Shown here: positions 1 to 60,175 of the stretch, piece by piece
Position numbering within the stretch: the first letter of the stretch is position 1
Layout: each line of letters starts with the position of its first letter
Sequence record: MT446420.1
Length of the DNA stretch: 64,000 bases
Strand: one strand, 5' to 3'
DNA from: Escherichia virus TH54
Notes under the pieces: model-generated
What the model was told of the DNA's origin: nothing
What the model saw: only the letters and a program-made list of their open reading frames with translations
Database searches by the model: none
Program-made: the position numbers and the translations under genes

Positions 1-29
1 TCACCAGCAGCTTTGATTAATTCTAACAT
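1..29 (-). CDS. hypothetical early protein, N-terminal fragment (gene continues left of window)
   Basis: ATG at 29 on minus strand, preceded by GGAG and the conserved early-promoter leader; only about 9 codons visible. Confidence 0.3.
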
Positions 30-32
30 TTT

Positions 33-100
33 ATTCTCCGTTTGTTTATTTGGTAACTCAGTATGGAATCATTATGCATCATGACCATCTGGTTGTACAC
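33..100 (-). promoter_or_regulatory. early promoter cassette (-35 GTGTAC, -10 CATAAT) with conserved 5' leader
   Basis: minus-strand GTGTAC-N18-CATAAT, then leader GATTCCATACTGAGTTACCAAATAAACA..GGAG..ATG shared with cassettes at 19.5k, 20.0k, 20.9k and 57.5k. Confidence 0.55.
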
Positions 101-146
101 ATATACTAAATAAAAATACTTAATAAAACCATAAAGGAGAAAGTTT

Positions 147-7938: not shown

Positions 7939-8397
7939 TTAGATATAAATCACTTTTGTGCTAATTTTTCCTTCCAGACGATTAGAGTTAACAAACGCCA
8001 TACGGCAACACATGGTTGGAGACTTCCCAGGAATAGCGGGGTTAACTGTCATTCCTAACCATAGGTTCTTGTCCGTGATTTCCAGACGAAGTGGACGGTA
8101 GTTCACATTCGGGTCAATTTGTGCTTCAACTTCCGGGAGTGGTTTCATCTCCAAGAATTCAACGATTTCTTTTACATGTGGTGTGATTTTTCCAAACAAG
8201 TCAAAAACATATTGTTCATCAATTTCACGCTGGATTGCACGGTCCAATAGGTGTGGACTGTACTTAATGAAGAATGCTTCAAGGCCTGCTTCTTTACAAG
8301 CCTTGTTGATAGCATTATTAATTTTGAGGAACTCCGTTTCAAAAATGCGACGAAGTTTATTGCGGCGAATGTAAACACTTGAATCGATAGTAGTCAT
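7939..8397 (-). CDS. regB: RegB endoribonuclease
   Basis: 153 aa from MTTIDSSVYIRRNKLRR; near-colinear with T4 RegB; AGGAG SD. Confidence 0.85.
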   Translation of the reverse strand: MTTIDSSVYIRRNKLRRIFETEFLKINNAINKACKEAGLEAFFIKYSPHLLDRAIQREIDEQYVFDLFGKITPHVKEIVEFLEMKPLPEVEAQIDPNVNYRPLRLEITDKNLWLGMTVNPAIPGKSPTMCCRMAFVNSNRLEGKISTKVIYI

Positions 8398-19218: not shown

Positions 19219-19524
19219 TTAGATTTTGTTTTCCTGTACACCATAATAAAGCTCATCAGACACAATATCCAGGATGCGGCGAACATATTCATCATGGTAT
19301 TGACAGTCAAAATCAAATGCAACAGTAGTTTCCGCTTCACGAGTGAATTTAACTTGCACATTCAGGTGATTAACAACGTTAGTTAATTTATCAGTAAAGA
19401 ACTCTTTTGCTACCGCCTGTTGGACTTGCACTTTGAACTTGGTGTTACGAATCATATTTTCAGCAGATGCGAAATTACCAGTTTTATCAAAGTCAACAAG
19501 CGCCAGGTTGATGATGAATTTCAT
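19219..19524 (-). CDS. hypothetical protein
   Basis: 101-aa ORF downstream of promoter cassette. Confidence 0.45.
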   Translation of the reverse strand: MKFIINLALVDFDKTGNFASAENMIRNTKFKVQVQQAVAKEFFTDKLTNVVNHLNVQVKFTREAETTVAFDFDCQYHDEYVRRILDIVSDELYYGVQENKI

Positions 19525-19527
19525 TTT

Positions 19528-19600
19528 ATTCTCCAGTGTTTTATTTGGTAACTCAGTATGGAATCATTATGCCTTAAAGCAGGGGGCTTGTATACCCCCT
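19528..19600 (-). promoter_or_regulatory. early promoter cassette; -35 in loop of GGGGG/CCCCC hairpin; conserved leader
   Basis: minus strand GGGGGTATACAAGCCCCC hairpin, CATAAT -10, leader GATTCCATACTGAGTTACCAAATAAAACACTGGAG. Confidence 0.55.
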
Positions 19601-19606
19601 TTTTAA

Positions 19607-20038
19607 TTAAATTTCAAATTCTTTGCGGAAGTTGGAAGCATAAGACTGAACTGATGCTTTGTTGAATCCAAACTCACGCACAATCATATCAATAACAGCT
19701 CTACGAGCAGCACCATTAGACATATTGACAGTTTTGAACATATCATAGCATAAATCTTTGTTGCTCATGCCGGAGCGTTTAGGTGCCTTACGTTCAGCTT
19801 TAGGAGTAGGTTTAACTTCTGGTTTAACCTGTCCATCATTCAGACCTTTAAAAATTTTACCTGCCAGCGTTGCCAGTTTAGCAGCTTCGCCACGAGTGAT
19901 ACCAAATACTGCCGGGTTAAATGAAATACCTTCAGCTGTCAGACGTTTGAAGAACATACGTGCTGCGGATTGTGCTTCAGCTTCAGAAGAGTTGTTTAAT
20001 GCCAGTTTAATGTACTTAACCAGTTTTGAAGTTTTCAT
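19607..20038 (-). CDS. hypothetical protein, paralog of 20491-20916
   Basis: 143 aa; C-terminus ...ARRAVIDMIVREFGFNKASVQSYASNFRKEFEI matches paralog. Confidence 0.5.
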   Translation of the reverse strand: MKTSKLVKYIKLALNNSSEAEAQSAARMFFKRLTAEGISFNPAVFGITRGEAAKLATLAGKIFKGLNDGQVKPEVKPTPKAERKAPKRSGMSNKDLCYDMFKTVNMSNGAARRAVIDMIVREFGFNKASVQSYASNFRKEFEI

Positions 20039-20041
20039 TTT

Positions 20042-20110
20042 ATTATCCCGTTTGTTTATTTGTTAACTCAGTATGGAATCATTATGTCTTAGTTAAATTC
20101 CAAAGTACAC
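20042..20110 (-). promoter_or_regulatory. early promoter cassette (-35 GTGTAC, -10 CATAAT) with conserved leader
   Basis: same leader block as 33-100 and 19528-19600. Confidence 0.55.
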
Positions 20111-20111
20111 A

Positions 20112-20408
20112 TTAATTTTCAGAAGTTGGGAAATAAACTTCAAAGTCATACATGTTTACTACCGCAGACGCGATTGCCTGGTACTGCATACCTAAGAAAG
20201 TTTTCTTATTCTTGCGCCACAAGTTAACCATTTCTGTTTTGATGCATGCCAGGGAATAGTTGGATGCAGGATACTGTTTGATGATTGCAACAACTTCTTC
20301 AGAAGCAGTTTCACACAATTCATTCAGTTGAGCTTCAATTTTAGCAGAAATGATTGCTTTGTTTTCTTCTTGAGCTTGGGTAGCGTGCCATGCAGGTGCG
20401 TTAAACAT
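20112..20408 (-). CDS. hypothetical protein
   Basis: 98-aa ORF flanked by two promoter cassettes. Confidence 0.45.
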   Translation of the reverse strand: MFNAPAWHATQAQEENKAIISAKIEAQLNELCETASEEVVAIIKQYPASNYSLACIKTEMVNLWRKNKKTFLGMQYQAIASAVVNMYDFEVYFPTSEN

Positions 20409-20411
20409 TTT

Positions 20412-20478
20412 ATTCTCCAGTGTTTTATTTGTTAACTCAGTATGGGATAATTATACAATATCCCACCTGGAAGTAAAA
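20412..20478 (-). promoter_or_regulatory. early promoter cassette (-35 GTTTTAC, -10 TATAAT) with GGTGGGATA inverted repeat
   Basis: hybrid of the two cassette types: leader block plus GGGATA..TATCCC arms around TATAAT. Confidence 0.55.
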
Positions 20479-20490
20479 CACTTTTCTCAA

Positions 20491-20916
20491 TTATTTTTGA
20501 GCTTTGCGGAAGTTGGAAGCATAAGACTGAACAACAGTCTTTTTGATATCATGGGTGGTAACCAGAACATCAATCAGAGCGCGTCGAGCTGCATTATCAT
20601 TCATATCAATTTCTGCAAATGCCTGGAAGCAAATGTCACGGGCGTTACCCGATTTGGACCGGATTTTTTCTTCTTTAACTTCTTCAATTGGGAATTCAAT
20701 CATTTCAGCTTGGATTAATTCAATGATAGATTCTTTTGACTGTTTGGTGTTTACCTTCAGTTCAGAATTAAGGGACTTGGCGATGGCAACAATCTGGGTT
20801 GAAGTCAGATGAATAAGTGCATCTTCACGAATGCAGATTTCACATACTTCGTCAGCAACCATTTTGTTGGTGATGCGGGTAACAGAGAATGCAGAGGTCA
20901 GGGTCAGAAAGTTCAT
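20491..20916 (-). CDS. hypothetical protein, paralog of 19607-20038
   Basis: 141 aa from MNFLTLT; shares C-terminal ..VVQSYASNFRK and a 30-bp identical DNA block. Confidence 0.5.
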   Translation of the reverse strand: MNFLTLTSAFSVTRITNKMVADEVCEICIREDALIHLTSTQIVAIAKSLNSELKVNTKQSKESIIELIQAEMIEFPIEEVKEEKIRSKSGNARDICFQAFAEIDMNDNAARRALIDVLVTTHDIKKTVVQSYASNFRKAQK

Positions 20917-20919
20917 TTT

Positions 20920-20998
20920 ATTTCTCCAAAGTTTTGTTTGATTCAGTGTGTAACTCAGTATGGAATCATTATGCACCCGGTCAATTCGGATGTACACT
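20920..20998 (-). promoter_or_regulatory. early promoter cassette (-35 GTGTAC, -10 CATAAT) with conserved leader
   Basis: GTGTACAtccgaattgaccgggtgCATAAT plus leader block. Confidence 0.55.
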
Positions 20999-21039
20999 AC
21001 TTTTTGAAGAAAATTTCAAATTTATTCGGGGTATAAAAA

Positions 21040-21078
21040 AGCCCCAACCTTTCGGGAGGGGCTATACCTTGTCGGGGT
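21040..21078 (-). terminator. intrinsic terminator downstream of ORF 21101-21484
   Basis: minus strand AGCCCCtcccgaaaggttGGGGCT followed by TTTTTTAT. Confidence 0.5.
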
Positions 21079-21100
21079 TCCACCTGCAAGGCAAGTGTTC

Positions 21101-21484
21101 TTATCCGCGAGCGAATGCCATTGCAGCGCGTTCGTTGGCACGGTCGGTGATGTTCAAGAATTTATCACGAGCGATTTCGATTGGAGCGCCAACCCAGTCA
21201 GCAGCACCATTACCCGGAGACTGTTTAGGACGGACCATATAAGTCGAAACTTTGGAACCGGCTAGTTTGGCACCTGGTGCCGCGGCATTTTTAACGTCTT
21301 TGGCTTTGATGCCAAATCCAGTTACGATACCCCAAGAAACGCCATTAACTGGTTTCTTGAACATAACACGGTCACCAATTGAAACACCAGCTTTTTCTGG
21401 AGCCACTAAAGAAAATTTACCAGCTTCAGTCAGTACGGATTCGGTGATGGTATTGCGATTTAAAAATTCTGCATATGTAAGCAT
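21101..21484 (-). CDS. hypothetical protein, possibly late-expressed
   Basis: 127-aa ORF; exact TATAAATA about 30 nt upstream on minus strand; terminator downstream. Confidence 0.45.
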   Translation of the reverse strand: MLTYAEFLNRNTITESVLTEAGKFSLVAPEKAGVSIGDRVMFKKPVNGVSWGIVTGFGIKAKDVKNAAAPGAKLAGSKVSTYMVRPKQSPGNGAADWVGAPIEIARDKFLNITDRANERAAMAFARG

Positions 21485-21515
21485 TTTGTTTTTCCATTAT
21501 TAGGGTTGTTGTTAA

Positions 21516-21523
21516 TATTTATA
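21516..21523 (-). promoter_or_regulatory. late promoter TATAAATA on minus strand
   Basis: exact T4 late-promoter octamer upstream of ORF 21101-21484. Confidence 0.4.
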
Positions 21524-21529
21524 TTCCAT

Positions 21530-21720
21530 AGTACCGGATGCACCATCCGCTCGGATTTCTCATACTACCGGACGCACCGTCCGCTCTGGAAAAAACTCCG
21601 TTAAAAGGATGCGCCGTTTCAGCTGTGATATAAGGGGACATCAACAAATCGTAAAGATTTATTAATGCCAGTCCTTAAACAGGGAACATCAGTCCGACGA
21701 CTTACCGGTAGCGACCCGGT
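21530..21720 (-). ncRNA. candidate small stable RNA region downstream of tRNA-Arg
   Basis: non-coding 190 nt with tandem hairpins CGGATGcacCATCCG / CGGACGcacCGTCCG showing compensatory changes, plus ACCGGgtcgctaCCGGT. Confidence 0.4.
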
Positions 21721-21723
21721 TTC

Positions 21724-21963
21724 TCATTCAATTGTAATAGCTAATTTGACTTTAACAACCTTATAATTGGAATCAAGGTCATTGAATTCCATAAAATTTG
21801 TTGCTAATCTGCGAGTCGGGAAACTTAGATATTTATTATGCTCAGGTGGAGCAGTTAATGCAAACCATGGGACTTGTTTATCATTTTCATCAAACTCATC
21901 AAAGCTATAAACCAGCTCGTTGTTGGTTATATCCATAACTGCATATGATTCACTAATAACCAT
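21724..21963 (-). CDS. hypothetical small protein immediately 3' of tRNA-Arg
   Basis: 79 aa from MVISESYAVMD; GAGGA SD a few nt after tRNA 3' end. Confidence 0.4.
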   Translation of the reverse strand: MVISESYAVMDITNNELVYSFDEFDENDKQVPWFALTAPPEHNKYLSFPTRRLATNFMEFNDLDSNYKVVKVKLAITIE

Positions 21964-21978
21964 AATATCCTCAGTAAT

Positions 21979-22055
21979 TGGTCGGGGTGGTGGGATTCTA
22001 ACCCACAACCTACGGTTTAGAAGACCGTTGCTCTATACAATTGAGCTACACCCCG
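21979..22055 (-). tRNA. tRNA-Arg (anticodon UCU)
   Basis: hand-folded cloverleaf: acceptor CGGGGTG/CACCCCG, D arm GCTC/GAGC, anticodon loop CTTCTAA, T arm GTGGG/CCCAC, 3' ACCA; ends +/- 2 nt. Confidence 0.8.
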
Positions 22056-22057
22056 GG

Positions 22058-22131
22058 TGGCCCCATCCGGACTTGAACCGGAAACCTGCCAGTTATGAGC
22101 CGGATGCTCTAACCAATTGAGCTACAGGGCC
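22058..22131 (-). tRNA. tRNA with CAU anticodon, probably tRNA-Ile (AUA-decoding) rather than Met
   Basis: acceptor GGCCCTG/TGGGGCC with two G-U pairs, anticodon loop CTCATAA, T arm TCCGG/CCGGA; no encoded CCA. Confidence 0.7.
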
Positions 22132-22136
22132 TAAAA

Positions 22137-22406
22137 TTAAATTACAAATCCAGCGGGAGCATTATCATCTTTAACCATATGCTGAATTGTATGATAAGTC
22201 ATTTCTTCTGGTGCAACCAGATAAGCCGCCGTATTAACCAACGGGATTAATTTGACTTTATTGAATGTTGAACAACCAATTGACATAAAGGTTTCGCCTG
22301 TTGGATGCTGAATTTCGCCAAATTGACACTCATACGAAATAGAGCAACGTTTGGTAGTGGTTGTCTTTGTTTTAGGGTCGTAAAAAGCTAATTTTAATAC
22401 TAACAT
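22137..22406 (-). CDS. hypothetical small protein upstream of tRNAs
   Basis: 89-aa ORF ending 5 nt before tRNA. Confidence 0.4.
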   Translation of the reverse strand: MLVLKLAFYDPKTKTTTTKRCSISYECQFGEIQHPTGETFMSIGCSTFNKVKLIPLVNTAAYLVAPEEMTYHTIQHMVKDDNAPAGFVI

Positions 22407-23579: not shown

Positions 23580-23633
23580 ATTCTCCTCAGTAGTTGATGG
23601 GATAATTATACGCTATCCCATTCAAATGTACAC
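23580..23633 (-). promoter_or_regulatory. early promoter (-35 GTGTAC, -10 TATAAT inside GGGATAG inverted repeat)
   Basis: minus strand GTGTACAtttgaatgggatagcgTATAATtatccc. Confidence 0.55.
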
Positions 23634-55612: not shown

Positions 55613-57172
55613 ATGAAAAAGAATGCATTAGTTCAAAAATGGTCCGCTCTGTTGGAAAACGAAGCTCTTCCGGAAATCGTTGGTGCTTCCAAACAAGCTA
55701 TCATCGCTAAAATCTTTGAAAACCAGGAACAAGATATTCTGACCGCTCCTGAATATCGTGACGAAAAAATCTCCGAAGCATTTGGTTCTTTCTTGACCGA
55801 AGCTGAAATCGGTGGTGACCATGGTTATGATGCTACCAATATCGCTGCTGGCCAGACCTCTGGTGCAGTAACTCAGATTGGGCCGGCAGTTATGGGTATG
55901 GTTCGTCGTGCTATCCCGCATCTGATTGCGTTTGATATTTGTGGCGTACAGCCTCTGAACAACCCGACTGGCCAGGTATTTGCCCTGCGCGCAGTTTACG
56001 GTAAAGACCCTGTAGCTGCTGGTGCTAAAGAAGCTTTCCACCCGATGTATGCTCCGAACGCTATGTTCTCTGGTCAGGGCGCCGCTCAGACTTTTGAAGC
56101 TCTGGCTGCAAGCAAAGTTCTGGAAGTTGGTAAAATTTATTCTCACTTCTTCGAAGCAACCGGTTCCGCGCACTTCCAGGCTGTTGAAGCTGTAACCGTT
56201 GATGCTGGCGCTACTGACGCTGCTAAACTGGATGCTGAAGTTACCAAACTGCTCGAAGCTGGCAAACTGGCTGAACTGGCTGAAGGTATGGCTACCTCTA
56301 TCGCCGAACTTCAAGAAGGTTTTAACGGTTCCTCTGATAACCCGTGGAACGAAATGGGCTTCCGTATCGATAAACAAGTTATCGAAGCTAAATCTCGCCA
56401 GCTGAAAGCAAGCTACTCTATCGAATTGGCACAGGACCTGCGCGCTGTTCACGGTATGGATGCTGATGCCGAATTGAGTGGTATTCTGGCTACCGAAATT
56501 ATGTTGGAAATCAACCGCGAAGTTATCGATTGGATTAACTACTCCGCACAGGTTGGTAAATCTGGTATGACCAACACCGTTGGCGCTAAAGCTGGTGTGT
56601 TTGACTTCCAGGACCCGATTGATATCCGTGGTGCGCGTTGGGCTGGTGAAAGCTTCAAAGCTTTACTGTTCCAGATTGATAAAGAAGCCGCTGAAATCGC
56701 TCGTCAGACCGGTCGTGGTGCAGGTAACTTCATCATCGCTTCCCGTAACGTAGTTAACGTACTGGCTGCTGTTGACACTTCCGTAAGTTATGCTGCTCAG
56801 GGTCTGGGTAAAGGTTTCAACGTTGACACCACTAAAGCTGTGTTCGCCGGTGTTCTGGGTGGCAAATACCGTGTCTATATCGACCAGTATGCTCGTGCAG
56901 ACTATTTCACCATCGGTTACAAAGGCGCTAACGAAATGGATGCTGGTATCTACTACGCACCATATGTTGCACTGACCCCGCTGCGTGGCTCTGACCCGAA
57001 AAACTTCCAGCCGGTTATGGGCTTCAAAACCCGTTACGGTATCGGTATCAACCCGTTTGCTGACCCTGCTGCTCAGGCTCCGACCAAGCGCATTCAGAAC
57101 GGCATGCCGGACATCGTTAACAGCCTTGGCTTGAACGGTTACTTCCGCCGCGTATATGTTAAAGGAATTTAA
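55613..57172 (+). CDS. 23: major capsid protein gp23
   Basis: 519 aa. Confidence 0.95.
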   Translation: MKKNALVQKWSALLENEALPEIVGASKQAIIAKIFENQEQDILTAPEYRDEKISEAFGSFLTEAEIGGDHGYDATNIAAGQTSGAVTQIGPAVMGMVRRAIPHLIAFDICGVQPLNNPTGQVFALRAVYGKDPVAAGAKEAFHPMYAPNAMFSGQGAAQTFEALAASKVLEVGKIYSHFFEATGSAHFQAVEAVTVDAGATDAAKLDAEVTKLLEAGKLAELAEGMATSIAELQEGFNGSSDNPWNEMGFRIDKQVIEAKSRQLKASYSIELAQDLRAVHGMDADAELSGILATEIMLEINREVIDWINYSAQVGKSGMTNTVGAKAGVFDFQDPIDIRGARWAGESFKALLFQIDKEAAEIARQTGRGAGNFIIASRNVVNVLAAVDTSVSYAAQGLGKGFNVDTTKAVFAGVLGGKYRVYIDQYARADYFTIGYKGANEMDAGIYYAPYVALTPLRGSDPKNFQPVMGFKTRYGIGINPFADPAAQAPTKRIQNGMPDIVNSLGLNGYFRRVYVKGI

Positions 57173-57190: not shown

Positions 57191-57222
57191 AAAAAGGGAC
57201 CCTTGAGGTCCCTTTCTTGTTT
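57191..57222. terminator. bidirectional intrinsic terminator GGGACCcttgaGGTCCC
   Basis: perfect 6-bp stem flanked by A5 and TTTCTTGTTTT. Confidence 0.7.
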
Positions 57223-57504
57223 TCATACCATACCATTTAAATGAACTTCTACCCGGCGCTTGATAAGGTCTCTGAAGTTAACATTGTTTTCTTGAAGTTT
57301 CAACCAGTTACCATTTTTATCTTTAGTGTGAGTAGAATAATTACCATTCCACCAGAAATCAGTGTCATATGCTAAGTTTTCATATTTTTTAACTAGTTTG
57401 TTCAGAGCATTGCCATTAACACCATTTGGGTATTTGTTGACCAATGCAATAACTTCAATTTCCAATTTTTTAAAGGTATTCAGAAGGAAAGTTGCTTTGT
57501 TCAT
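57223..57504 (-). CDS. small hypothetical protein inserted between genes 23 and 24
   Basis: 93 aa from second Met (MNKATFLLNTFKK), which is preceded by GGAG; early promoter cassette upstream. Confidence 0.45.
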   Translation of the reverse strand: MNKATFLLNTFKKLEIEVIALVNKYPNGVNGNALNKLVKKYENLAYDTDFWWNGNYSTHTKDKNGNWLKLQENNVNFRDLIKRRVEVHLNGMV

Positions 57505-57506
57505 TT

Positions 57507-57571
57507 TAGACTCCATTGTTTGGTAACTCAGTATGAAATCATTATGTCTTATCTTAATCGGGTTGTAAACA
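57507..57571 (-). promoter_or_regulatory. early promoter cassette (-35 GTTTAC, -10 CATAAT) with conserved leader, inside late module
   Basis: same leader block as cassettes at 33-100 and 19.5-21 kb. Confidence 0.55.
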
Positions 57572-57576
57572 ACTTT

Positions 57577-57584
57577 TATAAATA
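57577..57584 (+). promoter_or_regulatory. late promoter TATAAATA for gene 24
   Basis: exact octamer 27 nt upstream of ATG. Confidence 0.55.
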
Positions 57585-57610: not shown

Positions 57611-58891
57611 ATGGCAAAGATTAACAAATTACTGCGCGAGTCAACTATTACTACCAGCAACTCCTTGGGCCGCCCGAATCTTGTTGCTTTGACCCGCGCT
57701 ACGACTAAATTGATTTACCGCGATATCATCGCTGAACAACGTACTAACCAGCCTGTTGCTGCACTGTATGGTGTTAAATATCTTACTCCTGATAACGAAT
57801 TCAGTTTCCAGACGGGCGCTACTTATGGAGGTGAAGTCGGTTCTAAAGACCGTACAACTATTCCAGAGTTAGCTACAGCCACTCAGCCTGTGGCTAAAGG
57901 CGAATATGTAAAATACCAAAATATCGTTTACAAAGCTCTGGTTGATAATCCATTTGCATCGACCACAGAAACAGTGTTATCTGATGTTCTGCAAGAAGGT
58001 CTTATTGCATCGACTATTCGCCTTGTTCCTGATGCAGCACACACCGAGAAATTTGAAACCGGTGATGTTGAAATTAGCAATGCTGTATTCCAGGTTAACA
58101 AATGGAATGCTCCGGTTAAAACACGTAAATTGAAAACTGCATTAACTGTTGAACTTGCCCAGGATATGGAAGCAAATGGTTTTAATGCTCCTGCTTTCTT
58201 AGAAGACCTGCTTGCCACTATTATGGCAGATGAAATTAACAAAGATGTTCTTCAGTCTCTTATTACCGTTTCCAAGCGTTATAAAGTAACTGGCGTTTCT
58301 GACAATGGTTCGGTTGATTTGACATATGATGCAGCCCCGGAAGGCGCACGTAAACTGTATGAACTGGTTTGCGAAATGAACTCCGAAATTCAGAAAACTA
58401 CATCTTATTCCGGTACCTTTGTTGTTGCCTCTAGCCGTGTTGCTGCTATGTTGGCCGGTTCTGGTTGGTTGAAACACAGACCAGAAGATGAGCAATGGCT
58501 CCCCGAAACCGCTTATGGATATTTGATTAATGGTCTCCCTGTATTCTGTGATGTTAACAGCCCATTGGATTATGTAACCGTTGGCGTTAAAGAAAATTAC
58601 GGCGGAAACGAAGTCGTAGGTTCAATCTTCTATGCTCCTTATACCGAAGGCCTGGACTTGGATGATGAAGAGCACGTGGGCGCGTTTAAGGTCATCGTGG
58701 ACCCAGACAGCTTGCAGCCATCTATCTCCCTGATGGTTCGATATGCACTTTCAGCCAACCCTTACACCGTTGCTAAAGACGATAAAGAAGCTCGTATTAT
58801 CGATGCAACCAATATGGATTTAATGGCCGGTCAGAGCAACATGTCTTATCTGCTCGGTGTTAAACTTCCGCCAATCATTTATGAGGCGTAA
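57611..58891 (+). CDS. 24: capsid vertex protein gp24
   Basis: 426 aa; MAKINKLLRESTITTSNSLGRPNLVALTRATTKLIY close to T4 gp24. Confidence 0.9.
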   Translation: MAKINKLLRESTITTSNSLGRPNLVALTRATTKLIYRDIIAEQRTNQPVAALYGVKYLTPDNEFSFQTGATYGGEVGSKDRTTIPELATATQPVAKGEYVKYQNIVYKALVDNPFASTTETVLSDVLQEGLIASTIRLVPDAAHTEKFETGDVEISNAVFQVNKWNAPVKTRKLKTALTVELAQDMEANGFNAPAFLEDLLATIMADEINKDVLQSLITVSKRYKVTGVSDNGSVDLTYDAAPEGARKLYELVCEMNSEIQKTTSYSGTFVVASSRVAAMLAGSGWLKHRPEDEQWLPETAYGYLINGLPVFCDVNSPLDYVTVGVKENYGGNEVVGSIFYAPYTEGLDLDDEEHVGAFKVIVDPDSLQPSISLMVRYALSANPYTVAKDDKEARIIDATNMDLMAGQSNMSYLLGVKLPPIIYEA

Positions 58892-60175
58892 ATGCAAAAG
58901 ATTAATGCACTAATTCACGAATCAACATTAACGGCGGCCAACCAGGTCGCCCGTCCTAATTTGCTTTCTTATACACAGGCTACGAATAAACGAATTTTTA
59001 AAGCACTCGTGGCCGAGCAGAAAACTACCCAGCCTGTTGCAGCGCTGTATGGTGTTCGTGTTCTGAACCCAGATGATAAAATGACTTATCTCGGTGGAGC
59101 AACATTCGCGGGCCAGATTGGTATGTTCGAGCGTAAGAATATCCCAGAATTTACGAACAAAGACGAAGCTTATGCAGTCGGCGATATGTTTCAGTTTGAA
59201 AGTGTTGTATTCAAAGTTCTGGAAGCTTCACCCTTTGCCGGGACACTCGAAACTGATTTAGGTGAAGTTATTTCTGAAGCCATTGCTGCTGGACATATAA
59301 GAATGATGTCAGATGCTGCTTTCACTGATAAATTTGAAAAGGGGCATCCTGAAATTGCTGAAGCTGGGTTCCGTATCGATAAATGGCAGACTGAAGTTAA
59401 ATCCAGAAAGTTGAAAACTTCTTTAACTGTCGAGCTTGCCCAGGACCTGGAAGCAAACGGTTTCGATGCAACAGACTTCATCGATAATATTCTCGGCATT
59501 CAAATGGCAGAGGAAATTAATAAGGATGTATTGCAATCCCTTATTACTGTTAGTTCCCGCTTCAAGGTACAAGGTGTTTCTGAAAAAGGCGTCCTGAATC
59601 TTACTGACCCGAAATATGATAACGCACAGGACCGCGCACGAACCCTGTATTATTATATGTGTGAAATGAATTCTGCAGTTCAACGTCAGACTTCGTTTGC
59701 TGGTACATATGCGGTTGCTTCTTCCCGTTGTGCAGCTATTTTAGCCGCTTCTGGTTGGGTTGAGAAAAAGGAAGACCAAGATGAATTAGCCTATGGTGTT
59801 CTGAAGAATGGTTTGCCTCTTTATGCGGATATGAATAGTCCATGCGATTATGTTATTGTTGGTGTAAATGCGGATATGGGCGAGGGTCAGACGGTCGCAT
59901 CTTTGTATTATGCGCCTTATACGGAAGGGCTTAGCGAAGTTGATGATGAGGGTGATACCTCGGTTGGGGAATTCAAGGTTATTGTTGACCCTGAAAGCTT
60001 ACAGCCTACGGTTGCACTGTTAGCTCGTTATGCTTTGACTGCTAACCCTTACACCGTTGCTAAAGACGATAAAGAAGCCCGCATTATTGATGGAGCTGAT
60101 ATGGATAAGATGGCCAACCAAAGCCAATTGAGTTCTTATCTTGGTGTTAAACTTCCACCACTGGAAAAAGAATAA
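58892..60175 (+). CDS. second gp24-like capsid vertex paralog
   Basis: 427 aa colinear with upstream gp24 (shared SRKLKT..TVELAQD, LQSLITVS, YAPYTEGL, ANPYTVAKDDKEARIID) but more divergent. Confidence 0.85.
   Translation: MQKINALIHESTLTAANQVARPNLLSYTQATNKRIFKALVAEQKTTQPVAALYGVRVLNPDDKMTYLGGATFAGQIGMFERKNIPEFTNKDEAYAVGDMFQFESVVFKVLEASPFAGTLETDLGEVISEAIAAGHIRMMSDAAFTDKFEKGHPEIAEAGFRIDKWQTEVKSRKLKTSLTVELAQDLEANGFDATDFIDNILGIQMAEEINKDVLQSLITVSSRFKVQGVSEKGVLNLTDPKYDNAQDRARTLYYYMCEMNSAVQRQTSFAGTYAVASSRCAAILAASGWVEKKEDQDELAYGVLKNGLPLYADMNSPCDYVIVGVNADMGEGQTVASLYYAPYTEGLSEVDDEGDTSVGEFKVIVDPESLQPTVALLARYALTANPYTVAKDDKEARIIDGADMDKMANQSQLSSYLGVKLPPLEKE

Follow-up and report, generated by a model that had tools for sequence, protein, structure and literature searches.

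A putative early transcription unit antisense between the late head genes 23 and 24 of a VR7-like T4-type phage

Introduction

In Escherichia virus TH54, genes 23 and 24 are separated by a short interval, called the 23-24 slot here, which carries an open reading frame (ORF) of 93 amino acids (aa) on the strand opposite to the late genes, behind a promoter of early type. The slot was analysed within one stretch of 64,000 nucleotides (nt) from sequence record MT446420.1, referred to as the window. A 1-kb query across the slot gives full-length matches in Gaprivervirus genomes, the best being Escherichia phage EAWsc9 (98.3% identity), with VR7 at 94.8%; judged by this similarity, the window comes from a VR7-like T4-type phage (Gaprivervirus). 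An initial annotation had described the slot as an early-promoter cassette driving a small ORF, and all the elements that it named are present at or near where it placed them, which confirms the observation.

Organization of the 23-24 slot

The slot and its borders comprise the following features.

57191-57217, both strands: bidirectional intrinsic terminator, a G+C-rich hairpin with a T-run on each strand, common to gene 23 (plus) and the small ORF (minus)
57223-57504, minus strand: 93-aa ORF, stop codon included; the same as VR7ORF190c and JS98 orf173; PHROG 6003; 10.9 kDa, isoelectric point 9.6
57511-57514, minus strand: Shine-Dalgarno sequence GGAG, 6 nt before the ATG at 57504; candidate RegB cleavage site
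57519-57546, minus strand: conserved "class A" block CATAATGATTTCATACTGAGTTACCAAA, made of the -10 hexamer and about the first 20 nt of the leader
57541-57570, minus strand: T4-type early promoter, with GTTTACA (57570-57564), a 17-nt spacer and CATAAT (57546-57541), without a TGn motif
57577-57584, plus strand: late promoter of gene 24, TATAAATA, a T4 late-promoter motif 27 nt before the gene 24 ATG at 57611, found in all aligned phages

The hairpin after gene 23 scores as a terminator on both strands (-17 and -15.9 kcal/mol; z-scores -2.7 and -3.2), as the initial annotation had proposed, and it is homologous in T4, JS98, Shf125875 and the empty-slot phage RB27. The 93-aa ORF lies, as also described, between this terminator and the late promoter of gene 24. 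The minus-strand frame 57223-57516 (97 aa) contains two in-frame ATGs, of which the second, at 57504, is the conserved start; every homolog, like the PHROG profile, has its first residue here, and the product is therefore taken to be 93 aa long.

Sequence comparison supports the proposal that an early-type promoter drives this small, non-endonuclease ORF. The promoter, TTTACA (57569-57564)-N17-CATAAT, matches the sigma-70 consensus at 10 of 12 positions and the T4/PST consensus for promoter-early stem-loop (PeSL) elements, TTTACW-N17-TAYWAT, at 11 of 12. Its -35 box is kept in VR7, JS98, Shf125875, the uncultured T4-like phages L014 and L016, and T4. The late promoter stands back-to-back with it, six bases beyond the -35 box on the opposite strand, and the A/T-rich CTTTATTTATAAAAGTT (minus strand), directly upstream of the -35 box, is the same DNA as this late promoter. 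It sits where an UP element of the early promoter would be; the "uber" early promoter of T4 consists of an UP element, a -35 box, TGn and a -10 box (PMC2988021).

Two other regulatory readings were considered and set aside. A MotA-dependent middle promoter is rejected by the lack of a TGCTT box at -30, and a riboregulatory role for the leader was dropped when RNA folding of the cassette leaders gave no significant secondary structure (slot leader z = -0.6).

The 93-aa protein and its family

The protein belongs, by profile match, to PHROG 6003, an orphan family: residues 5-94 of the 97-aa frame align with profile positions 1-90 of 90 at E = 1e-46. It is 100% identical to proteins of EAWsc9 and vB_YenM_P8, and a tblastn search detects a single copy per record in 237 phage records, with one Acinetobacter phage also matching. 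The records fall into three identity bands, each given the genus of one checked example: 90-100% in 31 records (VR7, Gaprivervirus), 60-80% in 83 (JS98, Dhakavirus) and below 60% in 123 (Shf125875, Mosigvirus). An exhaustive HMMER search of 1.8 billion representatives gave nine matches and added almost nothing, so the family is small. Three of these hits were treated as spurious: P0025 and P0026 are long proteins whose compositionally biased repeats, such as SNSNGNQ, align several times with the NGN-helix region, and P0023 (160 aa) is a 30-residue family piece fused to unrelated sequence on a 701-bp contig, probably an assembly chimera. An IMG/VR scan with P0010 gave no match, and one with P0006 returned genome-length contigs only (155-172 kb), which carry close homologs.

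Searches of Pfam (E <= 10), NCBIfam, PADLOC and PDB sequences with the protein gave no match, and a literature search for the ORF names gave none. The initial annotation had noted the lack of a GIY-YIG or HNH motif, which agrees with the complete absence of Pfam matches, and had called the N-terminus Asn/Lys-rich, a bias that holds for the protein as a whole (17% Asn, 12% Lys). The label "glycosyl hydrolase family 25" attached to the EAWsc9 protein (stretch L002, 1824-2105) is rejected, as this 93-aa product has no Pfam, NCBIfam or fold match.

Conservation and predicted structure describe a real, fast-evolving gene. Full-length relatives that were aligned or fetched keep the frame unbroken, at 84-93 aa. 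The ratio of nonsynonymous to synonymous substitution rates (dN/dS) is 0.17 against VR7 and 0.29-0.33 against distant alleles, compared with 0.03-0.15 for gp23 and gp24, and the ORF is under purifying selection. AlphaFold2, run on a 19-sequence alignment, predicts a compact fold with a predicted local distance difference test (pLDDT) score of 94 and a predicted template modelling (pTM) score of 0.81, consisting of helix 3-24, helix 31-48, a beta-hairpin at 52-71 and helix 77-90, with an invariant NGN motif in the loop between helices 1 and 2. The ABPH49-type relative is predicted to share this fold (template modelling score 0.86-0.90), and comparison of the model with solved structures and BFVD gave no significant match outside the protein's own family.

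More distant members lie among arrays of small genes in the Acinetobacter phage ABPH49 (L005, 3001-3267), a member of the Vequintavirinae, and in L018 (4001-4264). Identity is about 30% for both, and the stretches examined in these two phages hold no T4-type head genes. Since distant members thus occur outside T4-type phages, the family has moved between phage groups.

Occupancy of the slot across T4-type phages

Homologs of the ORF lie in the same slot and on the same strand in VR7, JS98, Shf125875, L014 and L016; by sequence, they hold the slot in Gapriver-, Dhaka- and Mosigviruses. The VR7 annotation of the region reads 21, 22, 23, VR7ORF190c (minus strand, hypothetical), 24(1), 24(2) and rnlB, and the window has a like order. 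T4 itself carries the homing endonuclease gene segD in the slot on the same strand, as the initial annotation had noted, and the Salmonella phage CGG4-1 has segD only. A tblastn search with SegD led to LF82-31 and JK45, which contain both: in each (L027 and L028, 1931-2860) an 88-aa ORF homolog comes first and, after a gap of 3 nt, a segD-like gene of 219 aa follows on that strand. Empty slots occur in the Klebsiella phage Mineola (Jiaodavirus) and in RB27, where only the late promoter and the terminator remain and GTTTAC is absent. A megablast search with the T4 interval found 53 records that cover at least 80% of the query, and the other Tequatrovirus rows among the matches listed span about 270 bp, which suggests that the slot is empty in most Tequatroviruses.

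Comparison of the interval across T4-type genomes, which the initial annotation had recommended, therefore reveals four states: empty, ORF, ORF followed by a segD-like gene, and segD alone. Each occupied slot examined has a GTTTACA-type promoter beside the late promoter, and the junction between late promoter and -35 box is kept whatever the cargo, T4 segD included. In T4 (L012, 834-900, minus strand) this promoter reads TTTACA-N17-TATTAT with TGn, followed by the leader ATACAAACGGAG, and aligns with the versions in L014 and L016. Time-resolved omics data from 2022 place segD in the class "early-RNA_middle-Protein" (PMC9697503 supplement), and the early segD RNA indirectly suggests that the homologous slot promoter is active early.

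A multi-copy leader in the window

The leader of the slot recurs elsewhere in the window, and the initial annotation had seen it in the accessory region. The pattern ATAATNATYYCATACTGAGTTA has six matches, all on the minus strand, against 0.00 expected; the other five lie at 54-75, 19549-19570, 20064-20085, 20433-20454 and 20951-20972. BLAST of the slot block against these copies gives E values of 5e-9 to 5e-6 for four of the five, the fifth being a 17-nt match (E 0.075). When aligned, the six copies have the -35 and -10 boxes and an invariant CATACTGAGTTA in common, and five end in a TAAA..GGAGAATAAAATG tail, from which the slot copy differs. The five other cassettes are these.

22-125, minus strand: paralogous class A cassette with promoter, leader and GGAGAATAAAATG, found by alignment and pattern match
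19517-19620, minus strand: paralogous class A cassette (c19594), with a GGGGG/CCCCC stem-loop across the -35 box and a ribosome site that is a perfect RegB consensus
20031-20135, minus strand: paralogous class A cassette, found by alignment and pattern match
20400-20503, minus strand: hybrid cassette, in which a class A leader comes after a class B -10 box with stem-loop
20908-21022, minus strand: paralogous class A cassette (c20996), preceded by a terminator hairpin

Altogether, the minus strand of the window has about 14 early-type promoters, with leaders of two classes: CATAAT-GATTCCATACTGAGTTACCAAA in class A and TAtAAT-tatcccatcaactac-GAGGAG in class B, the -10 box of class B often being bracketed by an inverted repeat. 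VR7 has eight class A copies, mostly before small hypothetical genes and in two cases before 30.8 and nrdC.8. Gaprivervirus genomes carry 9-13 copies each, and other phages among the matches listed usually have one and at most four, so that class A is, on this sequence survey, essentially specific to the genus. The slot leader of JS98 is of class B type, which matches 507 phage records in several genera; given this spread, class B is the general T-even early motif.

A PeSL is built from an early promoter next to A/T-rich DNA, a stem-loop, and a Shine-Dalgarno sequence with its ATG. T4-type phages carry such elements in multiple copies beside variable ORFs, and the region from the -10 box to the ATG is where they recombine (Arbiol et al. 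2010, PMC2839356; Comeau et al. 2014, PMC4122927). Class B promoters with minus-strand -35 boxes at 23632, 14251, 11718, 10603 and 4538 have an inverted repeat around the -10 box, for example GGGACC..CACAAT..GGTCCC, which is the classic PeSL geometry. Between 18000 and 22500, syntenic homology with VR7 is limited to 19849-21099, 21599-21724, 21962-22143 and 22452 onward. The genes downstream of c19594 have no VR7 counterpart, apart from a 32-nt match elsewhere in VR7, and 21100-21599 has none either; the boundaries of these homology blocks fall within about 100-250 nt of class A cassettes.

Exchange of alleles and leaders

Comparison of neighbouring genes with the slot shows that alleles have crossed between genera. 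In LF82-31, gp23 and gp24 are 100% and 98% identical to those of Shf125875, but the ORF has 93% identity with JS98 and only 32% with the Shf125875 allele; in sequence terms, this phage is a Mosigvirus by its neighbouring genes with a Dhakavirus-type ORF allele. Its promoter and leader are of Shf type as far as GAGGAG and of JS98 type thereafter, including the 3' flank through the terminator. This switch implies that the imported block consists of the ORF, segD and the terminator, with one junction at the ribosome site. Such a crossover fits the PeSL model of cassette shuffling, endonuclease co-conversion, or both. L014 offers a similar case: its gp23 and gp24 are 92% and 90% identical to those of the window, but its ORF is only 30% identical, being a Mosig-type allele with 61% identity to that of Shf125875.

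The leader shows a mosaic of its own. Both the window and VR7 combine a -35 box and late-promoter junction of the common type with a -10 box and early leader of class A, a segment that lacks TGn and has about 7-9 additional bases; the 3' part of the leader, ACCAAACAATGGAG, resembles L016 and L014. The simplest reading of these sequences is an in-place replacement of the leader by the multi-copy class A cassette of the genus, joined within ACCAAA.

RegB sites at the cassettes

Several cassettes carry sequences that resemble targets of the phage nuclease RegB, whose gene is encoded in the window at 7939-8397. The consensus for strong RegB sites is GG*AGRAYARAA (PMC3014915), and the canonical cassette ribosome site, GGAGAATAAAA, matches it perfectly. 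The window contains four perfect GGAGRAYARAA sites, against 0.23 expected, and all are cassette ribosome sites. These RegB-type sites, at 39, 19534, 20418 and 23586 (minus strand), coincide with the Shine-Dalgarno sites of cassette-driven genes; three of these 11/11 matches are in paralogous class A cassettes and the fourth is in a class B cassette.

Interpretation

The explanation that best accounts for these observations, and one that we regard as quite probable, is a compact, self-contained early transcription unit lying antisense between the late genes 23 and 24. Host sigma-70 RNA polymerase would start at GTTTACA-N17-CATAAT immediately after infection, with the A/T-rich late-promoter DNA possibly acting as an UP element. 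The transcript of about 330 nt would contain a leader of about 35 nt, the GGAG site and the coding sequence of the basic 93-aa protein. It would end at the hairpin that also terminates gene 23, and gene 23 would therefore escape coverage by antisense RNA. RegB probably cuts the GGAG and so shuts the message off after the early period. The protein, with a predicted helix-helix-hairpin-helix fold that lacks a known counterpart, would act early on the host, a function such as host takeover or counter-defence being most likely; such a role fits because the gene diverges fast, exchanges alleles and, to judge by the empty slots, is dispensable. The slot itself would be an exchange point, with recombination inside the conserved promoter/ribosome-site and terminator sequences and a probable contribution from endonuclease-driven co-conversion. 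In the Gaprivervirus lineage, the resident -10 box and leader would have been overwritten by the multi-copy, PeSL-like class A cassette of the genus.

Several points weigh against this explanation. Promoter-like matches in 1 kb around the slot number one, with 1.7 expected, which is not above chance by itself; the significance of the promoter comes from its repetition and conservation, not from the lone match. The slot promoter has no TGn extended -10, a motif present in the JS98, Shf125875, L014, L016 and T4 versions, and its -10 box begins with C; for both reasons it may be weaker. The slot site GGAGTCTAAAA agrees with the strong RegB consensus at 9 of 11 positions, and a weak, non-significant predicted hairpin could pair with the GGAG. 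The slot copy also lacks a stem-loop, since neither the upstream 70 nt nor the -10 box region has a G+C-rich hairpin, and is for that reason at best half a PeSL; stem-loops are present at c19594, c20996 and the class B elements. A 2010 review reports that no segD-specific promoter was found in T4 (PMC2988022), and early timing in the present phage is argued from its sequence and from analogy with T4 segD. Finally, no Pfam, NCBIfam, PADLOC, PDB sequence or fold match hints at a binding partner for the protein.

The initial annotation had offered two origins for the ORF, a novel cargo gene brought by the cassette or a remnant of a mobile endonuclease. Recent arrival, in which a mobile class A (PeSL-type) cassette inserted into an empty interval in the Gaprivervirus lineage, draws support from the close match of the slot -10/leader to other cassettes (27 of 28 bases for c19594 and c99, 26 for c20109, 23 for c20477), from the many T4-type phages with empty slots, from the accessory-region homology boundaries near cassettes, and from documented mini-circle shuffling of PeSLs (PMC2839356). 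In this unit, however, only the class A -10/leader is specific to the genus. The ORF is a long-standing resident of the slot in at least three genera and uncultured relatives: same-slot orthologs in Dhaka- and Mosigviruses (62% and 36-37% identity) have leaders that are not class A, and the -35 box and late-promoter junction, common to Dhaka- and Mosigviruses and T4, are conserved whatever the cargo. The class A segment, only about 30-45 nt from the -10 box to ACCAAA, precedes a 3' leader of another type and looks like a later replacement. Because only the -10/leader is class A, replacement in place fits better than insertion of a whole cassette, and recent arrival of the gene is improbable.

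Descent from a SegD-like homing endonuclease once in the slot, for instance as its degenerate DNA-binding tail, is extremely improbable, even though T4 and CGG4-1 carry segD at the same position and strand between homologous promoter and terminator flanks. BLASTP of the ORF product finds no similarity to T4 SegD (E = 3) or to the LF82-31 segD-like protein (E = 5.2). Both of these match SegE_GIY-YIG and HTH_17 in Pfam, whereas the ORF has no GIY-YIG, HTH or NUMOD match, so that the proposed search against homing-endonuclease DNA-binding domains came back empty. Its conserved length, confident predicted fold and dN/dS of 0.17-0.33 are those of an intact gene and not of a truncated SegD-like C-terminal fragment, and in LF82-31 and JK45 the ORF homolog and the segD-like gene stand side by side. 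A late or structural head-related role, as an assembly factor or internal protein, is suggested by the position within the head-gene cluster and by synteny with 23 and 24 across genera; it is nevertheless very unlikely. The ORF runs opposite to the late genes, its strand has an early-type promoter and no upstream TATAAATA, and segD in the same slot of T4 is early at the RNA level. Empty slots in RB27, Mineola and, as the survey suggests, most Tequatroviruses imply that the slot is dispensable for head assembly. By inspection of the sequence, the N-terminus has no gp21-type (L/I)-x-E cleavage motif or internal-protein targeting match, and an internal head protein is rejected on this ground. Treating the ORF as a chance frame in a mere regulatory spacer would suit its small size, Asn/Lys- and A+T-rich composition and lack of annotated function, yet full-length conservation down to 30% identity under purifying selection, the high-confidence predicted fold and the homologs in the unrelated phages ABPH49 and L018 leave this idea a probability close to nil.

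Beyond the early transcription unit itself, a wider proposal combines three parts and, taken jointly, is speculative and rather unlikely. The PHROG 6003 protein may act early as an effector of new fold, for example in counter-defence or host takeover, in which case its divergence and inter-genus allele exchange would reflect an arms race. The 23-24 slot may be a landing pad, where the conserved promoter and terminator, together with visiting segD-type endonucleases, would move alleles between T-even genera. Besides providing homology for recombination, the near-invariant class A block (-12 to about +16) may act as a genus-specific regulatory signal read by a phage factor.

Implications

The slot helps to clarify how antisense segD is expressed in T4, as a conserved early-type promoter is found in every occupied slot examined, T4 included, and this agrees with the classification of segD RNA as early. 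With its four states and one junction at the ribosome site, it is also a clean natural case of modular exchange within the core head module, and it ties the PeSL model to endonuclease-associated exchange. Screens for early host-interaction or counter-defence functions could reasonably include the 93-aa protein, whose orphan family has a compact, confidently predicted fold. Overall, the locus combines known kinds of element (an early cassette resembling PeSLs, a family annotated as hypothetical and a slot visited by endonucleases) in a way that is ordinary for such phages, and the results leave current concepts unchanged.

Flanking genes

The slot is bordered by the following head genes.

55613-57172, plus strand: gene 23, for the major capsid protein, bordering the slot on the left, from the ORF list and VR7 synteny
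57611-58891, plus strand: gene 24(1), for a capsid vertex protein, bordering the slot on the right, from the ORF list and VR7 synteny
58892-60175, plus strand: gene 24(2), from the ORF list

The two gp24 (capsid vertex) paralogs stand in tandem, as they are annotated in VR7 and JS98. Two tandem Gp23-family genes occupy the gp24 position in L014, L016 and CGG4-1 as well, and Shf125875, LF82-31 and T4 have a single gene; this duplication does not follow the distribution of the small ORF. An Rfam scan of the window returned two tRNAs only and nothing at the cassette. These adjacent tRNA genes lie at 21982-22055 and 22058-22131 (minus strand), where the VR7 annotation has one tRNA-Met.

Comparison with known systems

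The slot resembles described systems, each with distinctions. Like the RegB-sensitive early initiation regions of T4, it has a GGAG Shine-Dalgarno sequence, a leader that lacks significant predicted structure and an A-rich 3' side, with regB present in the window; unlike them, its site is a 9/11 copy, and cleavage there is a prediction from sequence.

The T4 segD locus shares the position, the antisense orientation, the late-promoter/-35 junction and the terminator, and its GGAG leader is homologous (ATACAAACGGAG in T4, ATACCAACAAACGGAG in L014). The cargo is unrelated, however: SegD has 223 aa with GIY-YIG and HTH domains, and the present protein has 93 aa and no detectable domain. In LF82-31 and JK45, moreover, the segD-like gene and the ORF homolog are neighbours rather than alternatives.

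Compared with PeSLs, the slot differs not only in the missing stem-loop but also in its terminator, which sits after the ORF and is common to gene 23, and in its location within the conserved head module instead of a hyperplastic region. The near-invariant class A block, reaching from the -10 box to about 20 nt into the transcript, is also unusually long, and the PeSL papers cited contain no description of it. The likenesses are nonetheless extensive. The slot combines A/T-rich DNA, early-type -35 and -10 boxes set 17 nt apart, and GGAG-N6-ATG, and class A elements are multi-copy and concentrated before small ORFs in hyperplastic regions. Cassettes stand at the boundaries of insertions, deletions and replacements, as the four slot states, the LF82-31 junction and the accessory-region boundaries with VR7 illustrate. 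The LF82-31 junction at the ribosome site, finally, is a crossover between the -10 box and the ATG, the interval in which PeSL crossovers are documented (PMC2839356).

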